From the IMG/VR virus record IMGVR_UViG_3300018080_000022, positions 1-57,047 of that record: DNA of 57,047 nt; one strand, written 5' to 3'. This DNA is from a virus. Its lineage: Duplodnaviria; Caudoviricetes. Numbering within the stretch: the first letter of the stretch is position 1; each line of letters opens with the position of its first letter. A program made the translations under genes and the position numbers. This document shows, piece by piece, positions 3,805-51,243 of the stretch. A model generated the notes under the pieces. It did no database searches. It worked only from the letters and a program-made list of their open reading frames with translations, and was not told the origin of the DNA.

Positions 3805-4279
3805 CTTCCTTCTCCTTTCCCGGCGTTTGCCAGGCGTAGTCGCTCATATCCTCGTGGACGAAGATGGGGTGTTCGAGCTTCTGCAAGAGGCAGAACGGCA
3901 CGAGCCATCGCAGGTTGGTGATAGTGTCTATTGGAAGAATGTAGGCGTTCTTCCAGTCGATTTCTTCGCCAGTATCGTTTGCCCGCGGAAAGTTGCCGCA
4001 GAATATGTGCGTTTTGGCGACGGCCCTGAAGAAGAAGACGGTGCCTCCGGGGCAGACCAGCGTTACCATATGTTTCCATTCCTTCGGGGAGACGCTTATT
4101 CCGGTTTCTTCCTTGAATTCGCGCGACATCGCCTGCTCGGGCGATTCGCCGCTCTCCACCTTGCCGCCTATGCCGTTCCAATACCCGGCCTGCCATTCGG
4201 GCTTAAGCTTGTTGACGAGCAAGACGTGCGGCGCGTCCTTTATGTTGGAATATAAAAATCCGACTACGTAACACTTCAT
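3797..4279 (-). CDS. NUDIX hydrolase
   Basis: GGKVESGESPEQAMSREFKEETG Nudix box. Confidence 0.95.
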   Translation of the reverse strand: MKCYVVGFLYSNIKDAPHVLLVNKLKPEWQAGYWNGIGGKVESGESPEQAMSREFKEETGISVSPKEWKHMVTLVCPGGTVFFFRAVAKTHIFCGNFPRANDTGEEIDWKNAYILPIDTITNLRWLVPFCLLQKLEHPIFVHEDMSDYAWQTPGKEKEDG

Positions 4280-5079: not shown

Positions 5080-6027
5080 TCACTCCTCGAACAATGAACA
5101 GTTGCAAACGGGCTGCTCGGGATTTAACCCGAAGTGCTCGTAAACTTTTACCACTTCCTTGCAAAACCCTATCGGGCCGCCGTATCCGAAAGTGCGAAGG
5201 CCCGCGCTAACATCTTCGTAAAGCCTTATCCGCTCCTGGAAAGGCAGGCGCATCTTGAACGCCTTGCCGTACCTGCCGCAGTTGTCGCTTTCGGTTGTCG
5301 CCGCGCGAAGCTTCCTGTCATACCGCCATCCGAAGGCGAAGCGAAGAGAGCCGAGCGTTATCCTTTCGGCCCCGACGCCCGCGCAAGCTTCCATGAAGTT
5401 CATGGGCGACGGCGTACCGCCGAGGTCTTCCGGAATTATAGGGTCTAAGCGAAGCCTTATCCGCCATCCCATGTCTCTAATCTTCTTCGCCGCAATGAGA
5501 CGCTTGGCGACATGCGGCGCGCCGTTTTCGTAATTCGCCGCATTCGGCGACGCGCTGAAGGACACTATAACGTTGTCCTGGGGCTCGTAATTGCGAAGCA
5601 CTTCCACGACGTTTGCGGCCCCTTTAGTGACGAGTAGCATCGTATGACTTTCGAAATGTTTATCCTGCACGATGCCCTTAAGCATCATATCAAGATATCG
5701 CGGGTCGAGGAAGCTGTCCGAAAGCTCGCCAGCATTTAGCATGGCCTTCGGGGTCTTCGCCGCCCACTTCCTAACCTGCTCTTTCATCTCGCTTATGTTG
5801 GTAAAGACGGTCGGGATGGGCTTGTTGTTTTCGAGGGTGTTTCGCATGGTATGCTTCAAGTAGCAGTACGAGCAGTTATATAAACACCCGTTCGCATGCG
5901 AAAGCACGTGGAAGTGCGGACACACGACGCCCTCCGGCGTGGAATCGAACTTCTTCACGAACGGACTAACCCGCCGTCTAAATATCACCCTCGCCTGTGC
6001 TGTGGGTTTCGTCATTTTCAACCTCAT
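5080..6027 (-). CDS. Radical SAM protein, spore photoproduct lyase (SplB)-like
   Basis: GCLYNCSYCYL (CxxxCxxC), GELSDS, LVTK, RLDPII, ITLGSLR, CKE. Confidence 0.85.
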   Translation of the reverse strand: MRLKMTKPTAQARVIFRRRVSPFVKKFDSTPEGVVCPHFHVLSHANGCLYNCSYCYLKHTMRNTLENNKPIPTVFTNISEMKEQVRKWAAKTPKAMLNAGELSDSFLDPRYLDMMLKGIVQDKHFESHTMLLVTKGAANVVEVLRNYEPQDNVIVSFSASPNAANYENGAPHVAKRLIAAKKIRDMGWRIRLRLDPIIPEDLGGTPSPMNFMEACAGVGAERITLGSLRFAFGWRYDRKLRAATTESDNCGRYGKAFKMRLPFQERIRLYEDVSAGLRTFGYGGPIGFCKEVVKVYEHFGLNPEQPVCNCSLFEE

Positions 6028-6594: not shown

Positions 6595-6987
6595 TCATTG
6601 CCTGGCATTTTTCTTCACCATGTCTTCGAGGATGTTTAGTATCCCGAATTTTTTCACTTTTTCATACAAGTCCGTCAGCTTACCGAGGACTCCGGGGGCC
6701 AGAAAAGTCTTTGTCCGGTTGTATCCCTCCGCTACATTATTTCTTGCATGGGATATCGCATCGACGAGTTCATTCGCTGCATCAAGGGCCTTCCTGCCCT
6801 TGTCAAGAATGTTGTAGCCGGACGAAATCAAGACCTTCGCCTTCCTTATCATCTCCTCGCCGTCAGGCCCTAAAAACTGTTCGACAACCTTCTCCGCATC
6901 CGCCATCTCATCTCCTTTCGATATTCTCCCAAATAGAATTATCAGTTTTAACTTCGTTTTAATCCATAATATCTTCAATCGTGCCAT
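6595..6987 (-). CDS. Hypothetical helical protein
   Basis: Fits the operon; the true start may be the internal ATG of MADAEK. Confidence 0.5.
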   Translation of the reverse strand: MARLKILWIKTKLKLIILFGRISKGDEMADAEKVVEQFLGPDGEEMIRKAKVLISSGYNILDKGRKALDAANELVDAISHARNNVAEGYNRTKTFLAPGVLGKLTDLYEKVKKFGILNILEDMVKKNARQ

Positions 6988-9965
6988 TATGGCTCGCTAT
7001 CCACATCTTTGTCACTTTCCACCCCATCCGCGTCAGAATCTTGCGGGGTTGCGGGGTTAGATGCCGGGTCTGTAAGGATAATTGGAATTTTTCCGTTTTT
7101 GTCCTTCGAGGGTGGTTTTTGCGGGGTTGCGGGGTTAGATGCCGGGTCTGCAAGCCTTTTTTCAGATTTCTCAGGCTCGATTTCTTGCGGGGTTGCGGGG
7201 TTAGATGCCGGGTCTGCAAGCCTTTTTTCAGATTTCGAGCTCGTTTTTCCGGGGGTTTGTGTGGGATTTTCGGCCGATTCTGCGGGGTTGCGGTATTGCG
7301 GTATTAAGTTTGCTATTGCAGCCCCGTCTCGCAAGTTCTTATCATCGTCATCAGGATAAGAACTTGTCCCCATGCGTTGCATACACACATCATAACCCCG
7401 CAACCCCGCAGAGCCATGAAAATCTACTATATCTTGTGGTTTAGAGCCCTCGGTTACACCATCCGTTGGCGGGGTTATGCCGTTTTCCATAACCCCGCAA
7501 GATTTTTCATAACCCCGCAACCCCGCAGAATCCTCTTTTACCTCTGAAAGCACCCAAAGCTTTGTTTTCGCTCGCAGGTCTTGAGCGAAGTCGAGCTTGC
7601 GGGAATTAAAAATCTTACCCGTTAATCTTGAGAGCCGCCTGCCGAGGGAGCGTTTTAAGGAAGCCTCGCCGCGCTCTTTCGCAGACAGAAGGACATCGGG
7701 GACAACCTCGGAAAGCTCGGTTCCTTCCGTGAATATCTGAGAGACAACATCCGCCGTGCTCACGCTGCTTTCGCCGAGGTCGAGATTCCAGGCGTTGAAG
7801 AAAGCGCGCCATTGAAGCCATTCGTCATCCTGATAATTCGAAAGCTTCTTCTGGTTGCTGAGAAAACCCTCTATCCCGGCATTCTGCAAAACCCCTCCGA
7901 CTACCTCGCTCCACTCGACGAAGCTTCCTATAACCGGGATATCCTTCGCCGCCGGTTTGCCAGCGGCATACCACGCCCTGATTATCACGAAAGCCGCCCG
8001 GAGAAGTTCGTATCTGTTTTCACGGACATACCTTTCGAGGTTCGGATGGAGGAAGCTGTTGGGGTCTCGCTCCCACGGTTTTTCGAGATTGCTGTCCAGG
8101 CGCACGGAATAGCAGCGGCGAGGCATATCGCCGGTGACCTTGACGTTGTTGCCCGTGGCAACCCACGTGAGGTTGACCTTGAATTCGAGATTTTTCGACT
8201 GGCCTAAAACGCGGCCCGTGTATCTGTCTGTAGTGAGTATGCTTGCAAGCGGCGCGCTGTCGAGAACTTCGCGCTCGGAGATGTTGTCGAAGAGAACGGC
8301 GGGGCTGCCTTGGTCGAGGATGGCTATAAGCAGCTTTCGCCATTCCTCTTCGGCATACCTGCCGTGCGGAGCGGACTGGCTTGCGAGCTCGTCCCCGAGG
8401 GCGATGATGCTAAGGCTCTTGACGAGCTTACCCTTGCCCGTGCCTTGTGAAGGCGCGTCTACGATACAAAGAGGAACATAGCCATCGATAACACTTCGCA
8501 TCAACATAGTAAAAAGCAGGGAGAGCGAATTCGCCGGGCCGCTTTTATCCGCAAACGGGAAGTCTCGTATCACGTCGAGCAATAATTCGCGGGCGACGGC
8601 GACATCTTCCTCGGATGGCTCGCTTGGAATGGCCTCCATCTTAAAGTCGTCGGGCGGGACGTAGTACATCGCGGTCGCTTCGTCGTAACCGGGCTCAAGG
8701 CAAATAGAGCCGTCGTCGCGCAGAATGGGAGCGCCGGTTATAGCCCTCAAGGGAGGGAATGGCCATGAGCCGCAAACAAGGACGGACTCCACCACGGCAT
8801 CGGGAGGGGATTTGAAATGTTCGCCTTCCTCGCTTATATAAACGAAGCGCGCGCACTCGGCCAGCCGCAGTCTCATAGATGCCTTCGAGTATATATCTAC
8901 GGAAATATGACCGTCTTCGTCGCGGAGCACGCGCGTGAGCCTTCCCATTCGAACGAAAATACATGGCGGGTCGTTCTTCTCGTCGAGGGCGTTAATCGCC
9001 TGGCGGGTCAGCGAATCGAGCAGGTAGTCGTTCATGACTATCTTCGGGAGCTTGAAATCTGTTTCGGGGTCAACGGGAACAAAATCGACGGCCTTGTCGA
9101 GCAGTTCTTTCAGCTTCTTACGCAAATCTTTTTCATGGCGGAGCTTTTCATCGAGGTCTTTCTTGTCCGCGGGGACATATTTTACCTTACATTGCACGTT
9201 GAGAAGCAATTCCCCGAGCGTGTTAAGCCACTTTCGGCCCGAGGCCCGCGGGTCGGGGAAGAGGATAGCCTCGCGGTTGGCGAGCAGTTTTTGCAGGGCC
9301 GCGTCGCCAATTGGCCCGGCGCTGCTGCCCGCCGTACCGATTACGCTGTTGGCCCCGGCGGAAATCGCCGCAAGCGTGTCGGCCTCGCCTTCGAGGACGA
9401 GCACGGGGCCTTCAGCGGGGAGCTCCTTCGGGTAGAAGAGGCCGTGCTTGTTGCCGCGCGGCGTATAGCTTTTCACGGATTTGTTATACCATTGGAACAT
9501 GGTATTGTTGCCCTTGCGCTTCTTAATTCCGACGACGTTCCCGTCGCCGTCGCGCATCGGGAAGATAACGCAGTCCTTATCCGAACGGCAGTCGATGAGC
9601 TCGAAAGCGTGAATGCTCCAATTACGCAGGCTTGCGAGCATGTTAATCGGGTCAACAGGCTTATAAGCCTTGTCGGTCGGGCCGGGAATTCCAAACTCCG
9701 TCCTGAGCCAGTTGGCTGCATCGCGGGCTTCGAGGCCGAGCACCTGCATGGTTAGCCCGAGGTTGTCCTTGGCTATTCCGCACTTGAAGCATCTAACGAG
9801 ATTCTTGTTGCCGCCGACTTCGCAGGCCGGGCTCTCGTCGTCATGCTCGTGATGGGTAAACGGGCACTTTATCCAAACCTTGTCGCCGTGCTCACGGGTA
9901 GGGATGTTGAGCGCCTGGACAACCTTTAACACGGGGATATCAAGTATGTTCGTTTCGAGAGTCAA
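6987..9965 (-). CDS. Primase-helicase replication protein (CHC2-type zinc finger, TOPRIM, P-loop ATPase)
   Basis: CPF..H.H.D..P.C...CFKC zinc finger; IFPMRD..G..VG; LEGEADTLA and FPDP TOPRIM motifs; APSQGTGKG Walker A, LFDN Walker B, ATGNN, DM.RR. Confidence 0.85.
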   Translation of the reverse strand: MTLETNILDIPVLKVVQALNIPTREHGDKVWIKCPFTHHEHDDESPACEVGGNKNLVRCFKCGIAKDNLGLTMQVLGLEARDAANWLRTEFGIPGPTDKAYKPVDPINMLASLRNWSIHAFELIDCRSDKDCVIFPMRDGDGNVVGIKKRKGNNTMFQWYNKSVKSYTPRGNKHGLFYPKELPAEGPVLVLEGEADTLAAISAGANSVIGTAGSSAGPIGDAALQKLLANREAILFPDPRASGRKWLNTLGELLLNVQCKVKYVPADKKDLDEKLRHEKDLRKKLKELLDKAVDFVPVDPETDFKLPKIVMNDYLLDSLTRQAINALDEKNDPPCIFVRMGRLTRVLRDEDGHISVDIYSKASMRLRLAECARFVYISEEGEHFKSPPDAVVESVLVCGSWPFPPLRAITGAPILRDDGSICLEPGYDEATAMYYVPPDDFKMEAIPSEPSEEDVAVARELLLDVIRDFPFADKSGPANSLSLLFTMLMRSVIDGYVPLCIVDAPSQGTGKGKLVKSLSIIALGDELASQSAPHGRYAEEEWRKLLIAILDQGSPAVLFDNISEREVLDSAPLASILTTDRYTGRVLGQSKNLEFKVNLTWVATGNNVKVTGDMPRRCYSVRLDSNLEKPWERDPNSFLHPNLERYVRENRYELLRAAFVIIRAWYAAGKPAAKDIPVIGSFVEWSEVVGGVLQNAGIEGFLSNQKKLSNYQDDEWLQWRAFFNAWNLDLGESSVSTADVVSQIFTEGTELSEVVPDVLLSAKERGEASLKRSLGRRLSRLTGKIFNSRKLDFAQDLRAKTKLWVLSEVKEDSAGLRGYEKSCGVMENGITPPTDGVTEGSKPQDIVDFHGSAGLRGYDVCMQRMGTSSYPDDDDKNLRDGAAIANLIPQYRNPAESAENPTQTPGKTSSKSEKRLADPASNPATPQEIEPEKSEKRLADPASNPATPQKPPSKDKNGKIPIILTDPASNPATPQDSDADGVESDKDVDSEP
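7041..7527. repeat. Iteron-like GCGGGGTT octamer array (putative replication origin) within the primase-helicase 3' end
   Basis: GCGGGGTT at 7043, 7051, 7121, 7129, 7187, 7195, 7282, 7469; inverted AACCCCGC at 7394, 7402, 7491, 7511, 7519; three 32-bp direct repeats at 7041, 7119, 7185. Confidence 0.75.
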
Positions 9966-17286: not shown

Positions 17287-17910
17287 ATGAACCAACAGCG
17301 TTCATGGCGGGCTTTCTCTTTAGGGATGGCGATGCCGATAAACGAACTTTGCACTACGATGGGAGATGGAACGCCGGTCAGAGTCCGGCGCATCCTTATC
17401 CCCAACGGCAATGCCGGAATAATGGTAAGCGCTGGCAAGATAGTCGAGCTTATCCGCGAGTATTCCGGCAACGAAGACCCCGCCTCGCAGACGCGCATCC
17501 GCTTCCTCGCCGAAGACATCACCCGCCCATGCCGTTCGAAGGACTACCTCTGCAACGTCCGTAAAATTTACGACTGGATGCTCAGGAACATCAAATGGGA
17601 CAGAGACCCGGACGGCAAAGAAATGCTCCGCTCGCCCATCGTCACGCTCGACCGCCGCGTCGGCGACTGCGACGACCATACCATTCTTATGGGCTCTCTG
17701 ATAAAGAGCATGGGAATTCCGGTGCGAATCGTATTAGTGGCGTCATATAAGCCCGAGGTCTTCAACCACGTCCTAATAGAAGCGCTTGTCCCGGTCGAAG
17801 GAAAAATGAAATGGATTGCGGTCGATACAACGCCGTTAAATGTAAACGGCAAGCTATTCCCGTTCGGCGTGAGGCCGCGAGCATACAAGTACAAGGTTCT
17901 GGAGGTATAA
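17287..17910 (+). CDS. Transglutaminase-like (papain-fold Cys-His-Asp) protein
   Basis: I.W.RDP.G.E.L.SP..TL....GDCDDH..L..SL..S.G, FNHV, W.AVDTT. Confidence 0.85.
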   Translation: MNQQRSWRAFSLGMAMPINELCTTMGDGTPVRVRRILIPNGNAGIMVSAGKIVELIREYSGNEDPASQTRIRFLAEDITRPCRSKDYLCNVRKIYDWMLRNIKWDRDPDGKEMLRSPIVTLDRRVGDCDDHTILMGSLIKSMGIPVRIVLVASYKPEVFNHVLIEALVPVEGKMKWIAVDTTPLNVNGKLFPFGVRPRAYKYKVLEV

Positions 17911-21334: not shown

Positions 21335-22180
21335 ATGGCCAATTATCTTTTTAAGGAAAACCCGAGAAGAAAAGGCCGGAGATTGCCGCCAAAGGAACGG
21401 TTCTACTACATGGTCGAGCGGGTGAAGAAGAACCTACATAAGCGCGGATTCCGCCCGAGACCCGACAGCCCGCATCGCACCATCCCGCAGGTCGCCAAGG
21501 CGATAACAGGTGGCATGTGGTGGGGGACTTTCGACGGCATTTCTCCCACAATGAAACGAAAAATTCTCAAGGAAGTTATCAGCAACCGCGCGAAGGGCAA
21601 GGTCGCCGTCGTAACCGGGCGCAAGGGTTCCATATCAAAGGCCGCCGTCAAACGGGCGATAGGCGAAACGGCTGCAAAGCGGCTCTACAACAAGCTCGAA
21701 CTCACCAAGACGGAAATCGACGAAGCCAGGCAACTTCTTAAACGCGGTATGCCCGCAATCGAACGTGCGCGAAGGCGCGTCGCCGCAAACCCCGAGCTTC
21801 TTATCATCACCGGCAATCCGGGCGTTGACCTCATGGACAAGAAAAAGCCGCCGACGCTCGCGGACTTCAAGAAAGCCTACCCCGAGCTCTGGAAAAAAGC
21901 GCTTAAGATGCACAGGCGTTTCCACGGCGTTGACCCCGAAACCGTCCAGCTTCAATGGGTGGAGTCGGATGTGCCGCCGATAATGGTTAAGATGGGCGAT
22001 GCGCCCGACGTAACCTACCACGTCAAGGGGAATTCGAGAAAGCAGAAAAAGATACCATTTAAGCACGACTACAAAGGCAAGGTGCATGTTTGCACCGACA
22101 TAAACGGCAAGGCGATTTTTCATATCCCTGATGCAAAGAAGGGAAGGAATGTTCGCGTAAGTGATTGGGTGCGAGGTTAG
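21335..22180 (+). CDS. Basic NP-motif protein
   Basis: KENP, AANP, TGNP; K/R-rich. Confidence 0.7.
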   Translation: MANYLFKENPRRKGRRLPPKERFYYMVERVKKNLHKRGFRPRPDSPHRTIPQVAKAITGGMWWGTFDGISPTMKRKILKEVISNRAKGKVAVVTGRKGSISKAAVKRAIGETAAKRLYNKLELTKTEIDEARQLLKRGMPAIERARRRVAANPELLIITGNPGVDLMDKKKPPTLADFKKAYPELWKKALKMHRRFHGVDPETVQLQWVESDVPPIMVKMGDAPDVTYHVKGNSRKQKKIPFKHDYKGKVHVCTDINGKAIFHIPDAKKGRNVRVSDWVRG

Positions 22181-22188
22181 GAGGGGAC

Positions 22189-23376
22189 ATGTGGACTTTT
22201 CTCGTCAATCCGCCCGAGAAGGGAGGCAAGAAGGTGAAGATGTCGAAGGCAGGCAGAAAATACAAGAGCCTGGTAAAGAAACTTGGCGTCACGAAGGGGG
22301 CCAAAGCATATAGAAAGTGGAAAAGGGAAGAGAAGGCGAAGGGAAAACCTTCCAAGGCCAAAGCGAAAGGAGGAAATCGTATGGCCAAGAAAACCAAGAA
22401 GAGGGCAACGGGCTACAAGGCGCTCGTCAAGAAACATGGCGTGACGAAAGCCGCAAAGATGTGGCGCGCAAAGGGCCACAAGCCTGCCAAGAAAAAGGCG
22501 GGGAAAAAGAAGTATGCCGCCAACCCGAAGAAGAGGGCGAGCGGCTACAGGGCTCTCGTCAAGAAGCACGGCGTCACGAAAGCCGCAAAGATGTGGCGCG
22601 CTCGCGGCCACAAGCCCGCGAAGAAATACGCGGCCAACGCATGGAAGAAAGACAGGAAGGGGCATGCAATTGCCTCGGCCGCCGGATGGGCGCGGCGTAA
22701 GGGCATTCCCGTCCCCATCTACCTCGCTCAGCGCGGATACAGCAAGAGCGCAATCGACCGCTACATCAAGAAGCATGGCGCGGTCGGTTCGAGCAAGAGG
22801 TCATACACCAAGAGCTACCCGGTGAGAAGCGCCAGGTACGCCATGAATCCGCTCGAAGGCGCGGTCGAAACCGTCAAGAGCGTGTTCGCGGTCGAGACCG
22901 TGAAGACGGTCATGGGCGTCGGCGTAGGCTTCATGGGAATGGCGCTCGGCAACGCGGTAGTAAGACGCCTCAAGCCGGACGCCGGAACCCCGGTCGTCAT
23001 CGCCGGAGAGTTCGGCGGTTCGCTCGTTGCGGGCGCGGTTTACGCCGTCGCCACGAAGGATGTCGCCAAGGGCGTCTTGACGGCAACATCCGGCATCGCG
23101 CTTTCCGTCTTCAAGATGGCCTGGACGAAGTACGTCGCCGGAAGAACCATTCTCGGCCTGGCTATGCCGGGACTGTCCGATTACGTCGAGCTCCCGTACA
23201 CCGCCGGGATGGGCGATTACGTCGAGCTCCCGTACACGGCGGGAATGGGTCAGTCGCTTGACACGGGCATGGGCCAGTTCCTTCCGCCCGAGGCGGCAGA
23301 GATAGGCCAGTTCATTCCCGAGCAGTTCGGGGAGTACAGCGTCGGCATCGGCGAGGAAGCCGAAGTCGAATACTAA
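22189..23376 (+). CDS. Very basic repeat protein fused to a membrane domain and an acidic GMG-repeat tail (candidate core/nucleoprotein precursor)
   Basis: Repeated YKALVKKHGVTKAAKMWR; YAANP/YAMNP; hydrophobic helices; DYVELPYTAGMG twice (36-bp repeat 23178-23249). Confidence 0.75.
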   Translation: MWTFLVNPPEKGGKKVKMSKAGRKYKSLVKKLGVTKGAKAYRKWKREEKAKGKPSKAKAKGGNRMAKKTKKRATGYKALVKKHGVTKAAKMWRAKGHKPAKKKAGKKKYAANPKKRASGYRALVKKHGVTKAAKMWRARGHKPAKKYAANAWKKDRKGHAIASAAGWARRKGIPVPIYLAQRGYSKSAIDRYIKKHGAVGSSKRSYTKSYPVRSARYAMNPLEGAVETVKSVFAVETVKTVMGVGVGFMGMALGNAVVRRLKPDAGTPVVIAGEFGGSLVAGAVYAVATKDVAKGVLTATSGIALSVFKMAWTKYVAGRTILGLAMPGLSDYVELPYTAGMGDYVELPYTAGMGQSLDTGMGQFLPPEAAEIGQFIPEQFGEYSVGIGEEAEVEY

Positions 23377-23384
23377 CAAATGTA

Positions 23385-23436
23385 ACGGAATAGGGCGCAT
23401 TCCAAGCGGCCCTTGCTTGCGCCCGATAGCAGGGGC
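23385..23436 (+). promoter_or_regulatory. Two-hairpin kissing-loop element upstream of capsid gene 1
   Basis: GGAAT-AGGGCGC-ATTCC and GCCCTTGC-TTGCGCCCGATA-GCAGGGGC; loops complementary; homolog at 24088-24143. Confidence 0.65.
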
Positions 23437-23459
23437 AGAAAGTTGACAGGAGGAGTAGT

Positions 23460-24080
23460 ATGACCAGGAGAATCGCACCCGCGCCAGCGGGCGTACCGGC
23501 GCTTGAGCCCGTTCGTCAAGACCTGTACGACACCAAGCTTCAGGACGGCACGGTGTCAACGCTCGAATTCTTCCGGAATCCGGGCATCGCGGGCCTCGCG
23601 GAGCTTGCAACCAACATGCAGGCGAACGGACAGCTTCCGTATCCGCAGCAGTTCCACGTCTTCGGTCTCAATCTGGAGCTCGTCCCGTATTTCCCCGAGG
23701 AAGCTCAGACCGGCGTGGATGAGGCGCATTGGCAGAACAAGAAGAAGGTTCTCGAAACCGCCTTCTTCCGCTTCCACATCGGGAGCAAGACCTATCTCAT
23801 CGACCCGGCGAAGAGAATTCCGGCTTCGCTCGGCCCGGTCGGCTTCGGAACGGGCGCGCAGGCGGGCATAAACGCCTTCCCGACGAACGGGTTGCAGGAC
23901 ATCCAGCATTACTACGATGTCACAATCCGCCAGGGCGGGAAGATTAAGCCCATCCACATTCCCGCGCAGCAGTCGTTCTACGTCCAGGTCGTGTGGCCGT
24001 TCGGCAACCCGGCCGTCGAGGGCGGCGGATGGGAAGTCAGGGCATACCTCGTCGGTATTCTCTGGAGAGAAGTTCAATAG
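23460..24080 (+). CDS. Candidate single-jelly-roll major capsid protein 1
   Basis: 206 aa, beta-strand pattern, Q.LYDT...L.FF.NP...TNM...GQLP.PQ.F...G; strong AGGAGGAG RBS; tandem paralog; fold inferred. Confidence 0.65.
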   Translation: MTRRIAPAPAGVPALEPVRQDLYDTKLQDGTVSTLEFFRNPGIAGLAELATNMQANGQLPYPQQFHVFGLNLELVPYFPEEAQTGVDEAHWQNKKKVLETAFFRFHIGSKTYLIDPAKRIPASLGPVGFGTGAQAGINAFPTNGLQDIQHYYDVTIRQGGKIKPIHIPAQQSFYVQVVWPFGNPAVEGGGWEVRAYLVGILWREVQ

Positions 24081-24087
24081 CATTTTG

Positions 24088-24143
24088 ACGGGATAGGGCG
24101 TATCCTGTTTTCCTTTTCCGCTTGCGCCCGAGTGCGGAGAGGA
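24088..24143 (+). promoter_or_regulatory. Two-hairpin kissing-loop element upstream of capsid gene 2
   Basis: GGAT-AGGGCGT-ATCC and TTCCGC-TTGCGCCCGAGT-GCGGAG. Confidence 0.65.
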
Positions 24144-24169
24144 ACAACCGTTTGAAAACGGAGGTCATT

Positions 24170-24793
24170 ATGACCAGGAGAGTTGCACCCGCGGCGGCGG
24201 GCGTACCGGCCCTTGAGCCGATAGCTCAGGAGCTTTACGACACGAAGGATTATCCCATCGCGGGAACCGGGACGCTGACGTTTTTCCAGAACCCGTCCGC
24301 GGTAGGGGAAATCGAGACCAACATGGTGGCTTCGGGACAGCTTCCGTATCCGCAGCAGTTTCATGCCTTCGGCATCTGCTTTGAGATATTCCCGAACTAC
24401 GACGAGGCCGCAGCAATCGGCACGGACGTCACCTGGGCCGTCGAGAAAGTCAAGCTTCGCGAGAAGTGTTTCGCGCGCCTGACAATCGGCTCCAAAGACT
24501 ACCTGACCCTTCCGGGAATCCACATTCCCGAGGGCGTCGGCCTGACCGGGGTAGCGGTCGGCGACAACGCCGGAAGCAACCAGGTCGTAGTCAATCACGG
24601 CTTCCAGGACATCAAGCACGGCTTCGAGCTGACCGTTCCCCAGCAGGGGAAAATCAAGCCCATCCACATCCCCGCGCAGCAGTCGTTCCGCGTGGAACTG
24701 AGATGGCCGATTCCGCTCGCGCTCACAAGCGTCCAGGAAGCCGTCAAAATCAGGATGTACCTGATTGGCGTGCTCTGGAGAGAAGTGCAGTAG
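24170..24793 (+). CDS. Candidate single-jelly-roll major capsid protein 2 (paralog of 23460-24080)
   Basis: Shared blocks MTRR.APA.AGVPALEP, GQLPYPQQFH, GKIKPIHIPAQQSF, LWREVQ; GGAGG RBS. Confidence 0.65.
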   Translation: MTRRVAPAAAGVPALEPIAQELYDTKDYPIAGTGTLTFFQNPSAVGEIETNMVASGQLPYPQQFHAFGICFEIFPNYDEAAAIGTDVTWAVEKVKLREKCFARLTIGSKDYLTLPGIHIPEGVGLTGVAVGDNAGSNQVVVNHGFQDIKHGFELTVPQQGKIKPIHIPAQQSFRVELRWPIPLALTSVQEAVKIRMYLIGVLWREVQ

Positions 24794-24956
24794 CAATAGC
24801 CGCGCAACTTCGGCTGTCTCACCGAAAAAGCGTGTCTTTTCTTCGCGGGGGCCGCTCCGTTGGAGCGGGGCGGCCCTTTGAAAAAACAACGAGACAAGCG
24901 ACGCTCCGGGTAGCAGGGGAGCGAATTATGTCAACCCTTTGTTAGGAGAAAGAGAC

Positions 24957-50971: not shown

Positions 50972-51243
50972 AAAAAGGAACGGGAGGCTCCGCTACCTGG
51001 CTACAATCCGCGAATGCCCTACGAGCAATATTAGACGCGGCGGTATCTGTTTTTCACCAGAAGGTTTTCGGCTCTCGCACGGTCGCTCTCTCAGTTCTAC
51101 AGGAAAATCCTGGCGGTGACCCGATTCCGCTACGGAGTAGTATGACGCCACTACTGGCGGCTTGCGCTTACGCGAGTTCACGCAAACTGCGGTGCGTATC
51201 CGCTTGCCTCGGCCTCAGCCTTTCTTCTCGGCCATTCCCTTTT
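50972..51243 (-). ncRNA. Putative ~270-nt multi-branched structured RNA
   Basis: Ends pair (AAAAGGGAATGG/CCGTTCCTTTTT); several internal hairpins; lies in a ~500-bp gap in the gene run. Confidence 0.5.

Follow-up and report, generated by a model that had tools for sequence, protein, structure and literature searches.

The window, a complete virus record of 57 kb (57,047 nucleotides) with a genome G+C content of 53.6%, carries two tandem paralogous genes on the plus strand, paralog A at 23460-24080 (206 amino acids) and paralog B at 24170-24793 (207 amino acids, 51% identity to paralog A). Both products are capsid-like, and paralog A encodes a putative major capsid protein with a jelly-roll model (mean pLDDT of 71.8). 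The best structural matches were the capsid proteins of HHIV-2, SPV1, HCIV-1, and P23-77, with Z-scores of 4.7-7.0, a range that is also reached by unrelated folds. With VIA-align, 6h82_b (rmsd 3.7, 116 aligned) and 6oj0_T both reached a Z of 7.0, followed by 6h9c_D, 3zmn_A, and 3zmo_A with 6.1, 5.2, and 4.7, respectively, where models that lack true relatives typically reach a Z of 7-8. Foldseek returned no match against the PDB at E<=0.001, the best match in BFVD was I1ZBH9 (E 4.3e-4), and neither Pfam nor PHROG held a match for the paralog proteins. The original prediction had named both as capsid genes; the jelly-roll model and the capsid proteins among its best matches speak for this, while the matches themselves are weak. 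Judged from the predicted fold, the proteins are plausibly capsid proteins, closest to those of membrane-containing viruses. Viruses of the Sphaerolipoviridae type with vertical single jelly rolls have two capsid proteins per virus, and here two adjacent paralogous genes with weak jelly-roll matches occur.

Each paralog is preceded, on the same strand, by an element of about 50 nt composed of two hairpins with mutually complementary loops. In leader 1, hairpin 1 (23387-23403) has the stem GGAAU/AUUCC, formed by 23387-23391 (GGAAT) and 23399-23403 (ATTCC), and a loop of A (23392) and GGGCGC (23393-23398). Hairpin 2 of this leader (23409-23436) pairs 23409-23416 with 23429-23436 (GCCCUUGC/GCAGGGGC) around a loop of UU, GCGCCC (23419-23424), and GAUA. 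In leader 2, hairpin 1 (24090-24106) has the stem GGGAU/AUCCU, formed by 24090-24094 (GGGAT) and 24102-24106 (ATCCT) and extendable to 8 bp, and a loop of A and GGGCGU (24096-24101). The core of its hairpin 2 (24118-24137) pairs CCGC (24118-24121) with GCGG (24134-24137), is extendable (24110-24144), and encloses a loop of UU, GCGCCC (24124-24129), and GAGU. In leader 1 the loop-loop helix comprises six Watson-Crick pairs, while in leader 2 five such pairs are joined by one U-G pair. The stem sequences differ between the leaders, with pairing kept in both.

The Shine-Dalgarno (SD) sequence AGGAGG of paralog A (23448-23453) and its ATG (23460; 23448-23462 together) lie outside this structure and are unsequestered in the minimum free energy (MFE) fold. 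Leader 2 carries a small third hairpin, CCGUUU-GA-AAACGG (24148-24161), that does not occur in all relatives; it abuts the SD GGAGG (24160-24164), and the ATG follows at 24170. The end of hairpin 2 lies 23 nt from the ATG in leader 1 (23436 to 23460), and the end of the extended hairpin 2 lies 25 nt from it in leader 2 (24144 to 24170). Across 12 leaders of the comparative set, the 4-bp core of stem 2 is 21-37 nt from the ATG, and hairpin 1 has 5 bp and a 7-nt loop, while hairpin 2 has 4-12 bp and a loop of 12-13 nt. The structure, here called the knot, starts 8-35 nt downstream of the stop codon of the preceding gene, and its distance to the SD varies from 5 to 35 nt. The 12 nt on the 5' side of stem 1 have a G+C content of 17-42% against the 53.6% of the genome.

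The comparative set comprised 12 leaders (11 of them distinct) from six genomes, two of which are near-identical; L005 was omitted, as it is the same as L002 in the leader region. The predicted architecture, two hairpins with a conserved loop-loop contact before both genes, was recovered in all 12 leaders and all six genomes. Complementarity of the loops, which the original prediction had made its touchstone in homologs, was likewise kept in 12 of 12, and 98.5% of cells in the loop-loop helix were paired, with both sides changed in a compensatory manner in four of six pairs. Here, position 1 occurs as G-C, A-U, or G-U, positions 3 and 5 as G-C or A-U, and position 6 as C-G, U-A, or U-G. In stem 1, 100% of cells were paired and both sides changed in four of five pairs, while only 81.8% were paired in fixed columns of the stem 2 core, a shortfall due to shifted registers and to 2x2 internal loops in part of the leader-1 copies. 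Overall, 94.5% of cells were paired compared to 32-58% with partners slid by one to three columns, and pairs with both sides changed numbered 11 compared to 4.7 +/- 1.3 in shuffled alignments (0 of 500 shuffles reached 11). One of the five covariation measures, the number of further pair types, showed no excess (16 compared to 15.8 in shuffles, with 294 of 500 reaching it).

Pairing of the loops within a leader held at 71 of 72 positions, and mismatches across leaders appeared in four of six genomes. Pairing between leader 1 and leader 2 was rejected, since the compensatory changes fall within one leader. G-U cells outnumbered A-C cells by six to one (helices 1 and 2, pair 35-54), which places the structure on the plus (mRNA) strand. 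RNAalifold without a supplied structure gave the loop-loop helix plus A18-U40 as consensus. The unpaired A of loop 1, the UU of loop 2, and the U-A closing pair are invariant and most of the loop sequence is conserved, while the four nucleotides on the 3' side of the loop-2 strand vary (GAUA, GAGU, GAAC, GAAU, CAGU, AUGU, GUCU, CUUG, and AUUA).

Folding of single sequences gave a z-score of +0.09 when leader 1 was folded whole and one of -2.6 for leader 2; this is weak evidence, and the case therefore rests on the comparative data. Hairpin 1 was present in 11 of 12 single-sequence MFE structures and a hairpin around the loop-2 strand in all 12. The two-hairpin state was more stable than the nested fold with the loop-loop helix alone in 12 of 12 leaders, by 1.0-11.8 kcal/mol, and the loop-loop duplex by itself amounted to -7.3 to -11.7 kcal/mol.

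As a structure, two hairpins joined by a loop-loop helix, the element is very probably real. We infer that an H-type pseudoknot describes it best, one in which the three helices are able to coexist, an argument that follows general rules for H-type geometry and not a 3D model. Stacking of stem 1 on the loop-loop helix is probable and would give about 11 bp. The invariant single A would then serve as loop 1 and span the deep groove, hairpin 2 would be an insertion in the long loop, packed beside stem 1, and the invariant UU before the loop-2 strand may form a U-turn that presents the strand for pairing. In leader 2 of the window, the linker would be about 2 nt if both stems take their full predicted length, which is tight for a pseudoknot.

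In the window, the strict motif occurred at the two leader sites only. A covariance model (R1) scored both leaders at 62-64 bits, while the next match in the window reached 11.2 bits (E 0.07). With the covariance model, exactly two copies were found per genome, always on the 5' side of the two paralogs, and no further copies were detected in the genome. The weak R1 matches (position 51132 of the window with 11.2 bits, position 4181 of the window, and position 2710 of L007) were at chance level, as was a match of 21.3 bits in G002 C20, which looked unstructured. Rfam 15 gave no match in any part of the window at gathering thresholds. When 23300-24250 was searched with E relaxed to 10, the leaders again gave none, and the coding region gave two chance matches (SNORD39 and IRES_Bip).

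As an RNA motif, the element appears to be new but of a familiar kind, and it has no Rfam family. A literature search returned no description of it; the models of candidate structured RNAs (csRNAs) in PMC10690425 may bear on its novelty. That study describes csRNAs found by comparative genomics upstream of phage genes, five of them upstream of a major capsid protein family, and mentions the gene 32 leader pseudoknot, for which Rfam has no model. The present element resembles these csRNAs in being a structured RNA upstream of phage structural genes. At about 50 nt it is a compact natural RNA in which a contact between two hairpin loops is visible by covariation alone, and such support is rare among phage leader structures. 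It marks genes that are presumably expressed more strongly than any others in a virus group without a cultured member and without Pfam or PHROG models, and offers a handle on how these viruses set capsid protein output.

Several known RNAs share parts of this design. In the leader of the strongly expressed T4/T2 gene 32, an H-type pseudoknot with a single-nucleotide loop 1 precedes an open A/U-rich stretch before the SD and serves as an autogenous translational operator. The knot likewise fits an H-type pseudoknot whose loop 1 is 1 nt long, and an unstructured ribosome-binding region lies downstream of it (open in the MFE fold of leader 1), but here a whole hairpin is inserted in the long loop, the element is duplicated, and there is no sequence similarity. 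While the product of gene 32 binds single-stranded DNA, the genes here encode jelly-roll capsid-like proteins. Guanidine-II (mini-ykkC) has two adjacent leader hairpins with ACGR tetraloops in a loop-loop contact, which is ligand-dependent, consists of two C-G pairs, and has the SD in or next to hairpin 2. In contrast, the knot has loops of 7 and 12 nt, a 6-bp Watson-Crick helix, a free SD, and no visible ligand logic; ACGR tetraloops are not present, the loops being A plus GGGCGY and UU plus GCGCCC plus 4 nt.

In the pistol ribozyme, which is phage-associated, the loop of a 5-bp hairpin pairs with a strand farther downstream to give a 6-bp pseudoknot, and a hairpin-loop pseudoknot of about 6 bp is also present here (the loop-loop helix above). 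Here, however, the pairing strand sits in a hairpin loop, whereas that of pistol belongs to an internal loop that precedes a third helix; the knot has no third helix, conserved linker, or G-U cleavage site. CopA/CopT, RNA I/RNA II, and the phi29 pRNA form G+C-rich loop-loop helices of 6-7 nt in which a U-led loop presents the strand. These act between molecules, whereas the covarying partners of the knot share one leader and an intramolecular fold is feasible.

The element probably acts in cis in post-transcriptional control. As its leading function, at a rough probability of 40% and argued from sequence features, we suggest that the knot forms a 5' boundary resistant to nucleases and so stabilises the capsid cistrons. 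Cleavage of a late polycistronic transcript would fall in the A/U-rich stretch directly on the 5' side of the knot, and the 5' end thus created on each capsid cistron would be protected by the knot against 5'-end-dependent decay. Conserved hairpins past the second gene would close the 3' end, and both capsid messages would be equally long-lived and abundant. The low G+C content of the upstream 12 nt, the position of the knot close after a stop codon, its variable distance to the ATG, the free SD, and the 3' hairpins were counted in favor of this function. The region 3' of paralog B (24796-24878, plus strand) is conserved and structured; its z-score is -3.4 for the window and ranges from -3.8 to -5.5 across four relatives. 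It contains a G+C-rich hairpin of 14 bp (24847-24878), after which comes UUUGAAAAAA. Strong conserved hairpins occurred 3' of the second gene in all five lineages folded. This structure is terminator-like or a 3' stabiliser, and the capsid transcript probably ends there. At the leaders, no promoter or cleavage site was identified. The absence of the element from every other gene of the virus was counted against a stabiliser. A passive stabiliser would have no need of the invariant unpaired nucleotides (A and UU), of the never-changing closing pair U-A, or of a loop conserved for the most part; these fit specific recognition, either by a protein or in a defined tertiary fold.

This conservation feeds the main rival, in which a protein-bound translational operator on the knot would repress or tune both cistrons in parallel; the binder may be capsid protein still unassembled or a different viral factor, so that synthesis is coupled to assembly and the paralog ratio is fixed. 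Confinement of the element to the two paralogs points the same way, as does the stretch from knot to SD, which is unstructured and rich in purines and A/U like that of the gene 32 leader. A search of the two proteins and of 81 ORF translations of the virus, however, returned no RNA-binding domain, and the distance from knot to SD varies as given above; such an operator appears possible and on the unlikely side. Its narrower form, an assembly-sensing operator in which unassembled capsid protein or a viral assembly factor binds the same loop-loop surface on both leaders, is somewhat more doubtful. If true, both paralogs would be throttled jointly and held at the ratio of the shell, giving RNA-based stoichiometry control in a two-capsid-protein virus from a large uncultivated group (903 protein clusters related to the two paralogs). 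A role in translation as an enhancer or standby site is improbable: the knot would keep the downstream A/U- and purine-rich region single-stranded or land the 30S subunit, and initiation on both cistrons would rise. The MFE fold of leader 1 does leave SD and start codon free, and the knot absorbs G+C-rich sequence on the 5' side of an open ribosome-binding region. However, the strong consensus SD (GGAGG) already explains initiation, the small hairpin abuts the SD in leader 2 of the window, and no precedent-specific feature is present. Quite improbable, too, is a conformational switch between the loop-loop helix and the two hairpins as alternative states, with temperature, a ligand, or the kinetics of transcription as the trigger. 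Topology lets the helices exist together, and in all 12 leaders the nested alternative is the less stable. There is no expression platform, as the SD is covered in neither state and a terminator-like shape occurs in leader 2 of the window only, and no Rfam riboswitch matched; for a switch speak the nested RNAalifold consensus, with the long-range helix alone, and the choice of U10 or U40 as partner of A18.

Covariation is blind to the difference between intramolecular and homotypic intermolecular pairing, a fully coaxial intramolecular kiss is impossible with short linkers, and the UU-led loop resembles antisense recognition loops. Loop 1 and loop 2 of separate copies of the same leader might kiss in trans, in the manner of the phi29 pRNA, and join mRNAs into dimers or multimers, or the loops might be targets of antisense RNA; this is very improbable, as the H-type arrangement removes the steric problem, pairing across leaders is not the conserved one, and the genome holds no third copy or partner. 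A self-cleaving, pistol-like ribozyme that processes the polycistronic RNA would fit the 5-bp hairpin 1 with its loop in a 6-bp pseudoknot and the location between cistrons, but is highly unlikely: the Rfam ribozyme models gave no match with E relaxed to 10, the invariant unpaired nucleotides number only three, there is variation in the 4 nt on the 3' side of the loop-2 strand with no third hairpin after them, and no signs of self-cleavage were found. Equally unlikely is a site at the level of DNA. The two conserved blocks do form an inverted repeat (GGGCGCA/TGCGCCC), which could bind a dimeric regulator or belong to a promoter, and TTGAC(A/G) lies 0-20 nt on the 5' side of hairpin 1 in five of six leader-2 copies. 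Yet the spacing of the arms varies (20-23 nt), a change in one arm is answered in the other arm of that leader, with the consensus retained by the genome's second leader, G-U pairs are allowed, and the local stems covary; the promoter reading of TTGAC(A/G) was rejected, as no -10 element lies at a constant distance. An intrinsic terminator (G+C-rich hairpin plus U run) was also rejected, since the scan fits only hairpin 1 of leader 2 in the window, and the U run is absent from leader 1 of the window and from the leader-2 copies of L002, L008, L006, and L007.

If the knot is a nuclease block or a capsid-protein target, it would be a portable module for mRNA stabilisation or coupled expression and a clean system for intramolecular kissing folds. 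If it is merely a passive structure, it is still a useful marker for the capsid genes of this group.

Relatives were sought in several collections. A search for RNA runs that contain the virus returned none. DNA contigs from four runs gave no usable leader variants, because diverged relatives skip the leader region, and tblastn against 50,697 phage records gave no match. Protein-pattern scans of viral contigs with L007, L006, or P0022 as queries returned no relatives. Alignments of distant family members were too variable for scanning. A DNA pattern scan of viral contigs returned the known relative and L018; the latter is a plain hairpin that lacks both stem 1 and stem 2 and belongs to an unrelated A+T-rich phage, and it was set aside as chance. 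Among 401 genomes of the phylum of the MAG from the genome scan, the protein occurred in the MAG itself only. One relative virus came from a protein-pattern scan of viral contigs, while the metagenome scan contributed four loci and the genome scan one.

The 57,047-bp virus record, complete with direct terminal repeats and 53.6% G+C, carries two head-to-tail paralogs on the + strand, A (23460-24080, 206 aa) and B (24170-24793, 207 aa), which are 51% identical and share the N-terminus MTRR(I/V)APA.AGVPALEP. The original prediction of two hairpins with complementary loops in front of each gene was borne out by direct reading of the sequence. In leader 1, stem 1 (GGAAU/AUUCC) encloses the loop A-GGGCGC and is followed after 5 nt by stem 2 (GCCCUUGC/GCAGGGGC) around UU-GCGCCC-GAUA. 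In leader 2, the corresponding stems are GGGAU/AUCCU around A-GGGCGU and CCGC/GCGG (extendable) around UU-GCGCCC-GAGU. Single-sequence folding recovered both hairpins, with z-scores of +0.09 and -2.6 for leaders 1 and 2, respectively, which are unimpressive taken alone. Across the whole window, the strict two-block motif was found at the two leader sites and nowhere else, and loose matches to its halves (72 and 16) were no more frequent than expected (82 and 23).

Protein searches returned 20 relatives of paralog A, and DNA of relatives was compared from one IMG/VR virus (L002), four metagenome contigs (L004-L007), and one MAG contig (L008); L005 was left out of the counts because it is identical to L002 in the element region. 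Among the sequencing runs searched, no RNA run contained the virus, and DNA contigs aligned to the record contributed no leader variants. The tandem pair was present in 6 of 6 genomes, and the covariance check upstream of the homologous genes found the element kept in 12 of 12 leaders. In alignment A4 of the 12 leader cores (11 distinct rows), stem 1, the 4-bp core of stem 2, and the loop-loop helix, the last counted as a pseudoknot, had 100, 81.8, and 98.5% of their cells paired, with double-sided changes at 4 of 5, 3 of 4, and 4 of 6 pairs, respectively; the closing U-A pair of stem 1 is invariant. The lower value for stem 2 is due to one-base register shifts in leader 1 of L002 and L008 and 2x2 internal loops in leader 1 of L004 and L006. 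Position 1 of the loop-loop helix appears as G-C, A-U, G-U, and once A-C, positions 3 and 5 as G-C and A-U, and position 6 as C-G, U-A, and U-G.

Over the whole structure, 94.5% of cells were paired vs 32-58% with partners slid by 1-3 columns, and 11 pairs had double-sided changes vs 4.7 ± 1.3 in shuffles (0 of 500 reached 11). This count is the robust covariation measure and lies clearly above the shuffles, with the caveat that related sequences may beat shuffles even without structure. The number of further pair types does not exceed the shuffles (16 vs 15.8, with 294 of 500 reaching 16). RNAalifold without an imposed structure returned a consensus of the loop-loop helix and the invariant A18-U40 pair, together with which the hairpins cannot be displayed.

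A nested fold with the loop-loop helix alone was less stable than the two hairpins in all 12 leaders, by 1.0-11.8 kcal/mol, and the loop-loop duplex had energies of -7.3 to -11.7 kcal/mol. Covariation is seen in each of the three helices and their topology lets them coexist, so a pseudoknot is the simplest reading, and sequence comparison supports the element well as a real and conserved RNA pseudoknot. By the general rules of pseudoknot geometry, linkers of 2-9 nt would rule out a coaxial kiss with stem 1, the kissing helix, and stem 2 in line, and the loop-loop pairs would form a standard H-type pseudoknot with stem 1. Stem 1 (5 bp) would then directly abut the loop-loop helix (6 bp) with zero nt between, the single invariant A would be the pseudoknot's loop 1 across the deep groove, and the linker with the 5' half of stem 2 would make up the long loop, placing hairpin 2 beside stem 1. 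The invariant UU preceding the loop-2 strand fits a U-turn, and the invariant U10-A18 pair may form a junction triple with U40. The geometry in leader 2 of the window would be tight if both stems reach their full predicted length.

Covariance model R1 found exactly two copies per genome (49-70 bits), including the two whole records searched, and every other match scored at or below about 21 bits. Rfam held no match to the element, and scanning 2.9 million viral contigs with a sequence pattern recovered only the known relative and one chance hairpin. No description was found in the literature searched, which included main-text passages of PMC10690425; that paper reports thousands of candidate viral RNAs, of which five precede a capsid family. 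The general kind of element, a cis-acting phage leader structure, is already known; this one belongs to no described family and occurs in a small clade within a group of uncultivated viruses.

Paralogs A and B and nine neighbouring ORFs had no match in Pfam or PHROGs. The AlphaFold model (input alignment of 19 rows) is an all-beta sandwich with a mean pLDDT of 71.8. Foldseek gave no PDB match at E<=0.001, its top rows being jelly-roll capsid proteins, and the best BFVD match was I1ZBH9 (E 4.3e-4). VIA-align was led by capsid proteins of HHIV-2, SPV1, and HCIV-1 (Z 7.0, 7.0, and 6.1, respectively), with VP17 and VP16 of P23-77 at 5.2 and 4.7, values within the range common for unrelated folds. 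These weak jelly-roll matches make it plausible that the paralogs are capsid genes of the type found in viruses that have two single-jelly-roll capsid proteins. ESM Atlas neighbours were viral hypothetical proteins (80-93% viral), and a profile search found 903, 251, and 11 related clusters (50% identity) at E<=0.001, <=1e-10, and <=1e-30, respectively. A family of this size suggests a sizeable group of uncultivated viruses that Pfam and PHROGs do not model. L008, a 6.5 kb contig from a virus closely related to this one (82% protein identity), was binned into an Omnitrophota MAG; this is weak host evidence, since none of 400 other genomes sampled across Omnitrophota has a paralog-type protein.

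Few families were matched among the 81 ORF translations of the record, and Pfam gave no terminase, portal, or HK97-type capsid. Pfam assigned a radical SAM/SPL-like protein (5080-6027), a 992-aa DnaG-type zinc finger and Toprim protein (6987-9965, minus strand), a transglutaminase-like protein (17287-17910), a D12 methyltransferase (38623-39576), and a WG-repeat protein (42285-43280); DUF1643, DUF3850, and YopX were also found. The gene upstream of leader 1 (22165-23376, 403 aa, no Pfam or PHROG match) encodes three basic repeats of ~29 aa (..YKALVKKHGVTKAAKMWRAKGHKPAKK..), then hydrophobic segments and a duplicated DYVELPYTAGMG near the C-terminus, and its product may be a virion protein associated with membrane or DNA.

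The knot begins 8-35 nt downstream of the preceding stop codon, behind 12 nt of A/U-rich sequence (17-42% G+C), and ends 21-37 nt before the ATG. A consensus Shine-Dalgarno sequence (GGAGG) is free in the predicted fold of leader 1, and a sigma-70 scan found no promoter in the leaders. Very stable, conserved hairpins lie directly 3' of paralog B (24796-24885; z -3.4 to -5.5 in each of the 5 lineages folded), including a 14-bp G+C-rich stem at 24847-24878 followed by UUUGAAAAAA. Equivalent hairpins of different sequence occur in L002, L004, L006, and L007 (z -3.8 to -5.5). The hairpins after paralog B are probably where the capsid message ends, or serve to stabilise its 3' side.

Beyond structure, strand, position, and restriction to the two paralogs, the role of the element is a matter of interpretation. 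The favoured reading, with a probability of about 0.4, is that the knot would give each capsid cistron a nuclease-resistant 5' boundary, working with the 3' hairpins. It is suggested by the A/U-rich single strand beside a stable knot, the varying distance between knot and Shine-Dalgarno sequence, and the structured 3' end after paralog B. The main rival, a protein-bound operator, accounts better for the invariant unpaired nucleotides and for the confinement to two paralogs, and is less likely. A translation enhancer appears improbable and a conformational switch slightly more so, and a ribozyme is very improbable.

The loop complementarity on which the original prediction turned is kept in the homologs, as 71 of 72 loop-loop positions pair within their own leader. 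Loop 1 mismatches loop 2 of the other leader in L002, L008, L006, and L007, so the selected contact lies within a leader. Contact between identical molecules would also be compatible with the covariation, and kissing in trans ranks just below the conformational switch. G-U pairs are tolerated in six cells and A-C in one, which places the structure on the + strand, that is, in the mRNA; a DNA-level site is as improbable as a ribozyme.

Two further hairpin arrangements were observed. In leader 2, a small extra hairpin (24148-24164, CCGUUU-GA-AAACGG) has a 3' arm running into the Shine-Dalgarno GGAGG; a similar sequence occurs in L004 and is not clearly present in other relatives. Upstream of the third gene in L007 (2695-2756), with no counterpart in the window at 24880-24956, two similar hairpins stand in tandem and score only 7.6 bits with the covariance model. 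Their loops, GCGCUAG and GCGCCAG, resemble the loop-2 strand of the element, and the second hairpin covers the Shine-Dalgarno sequence (GGAAGGAGG).
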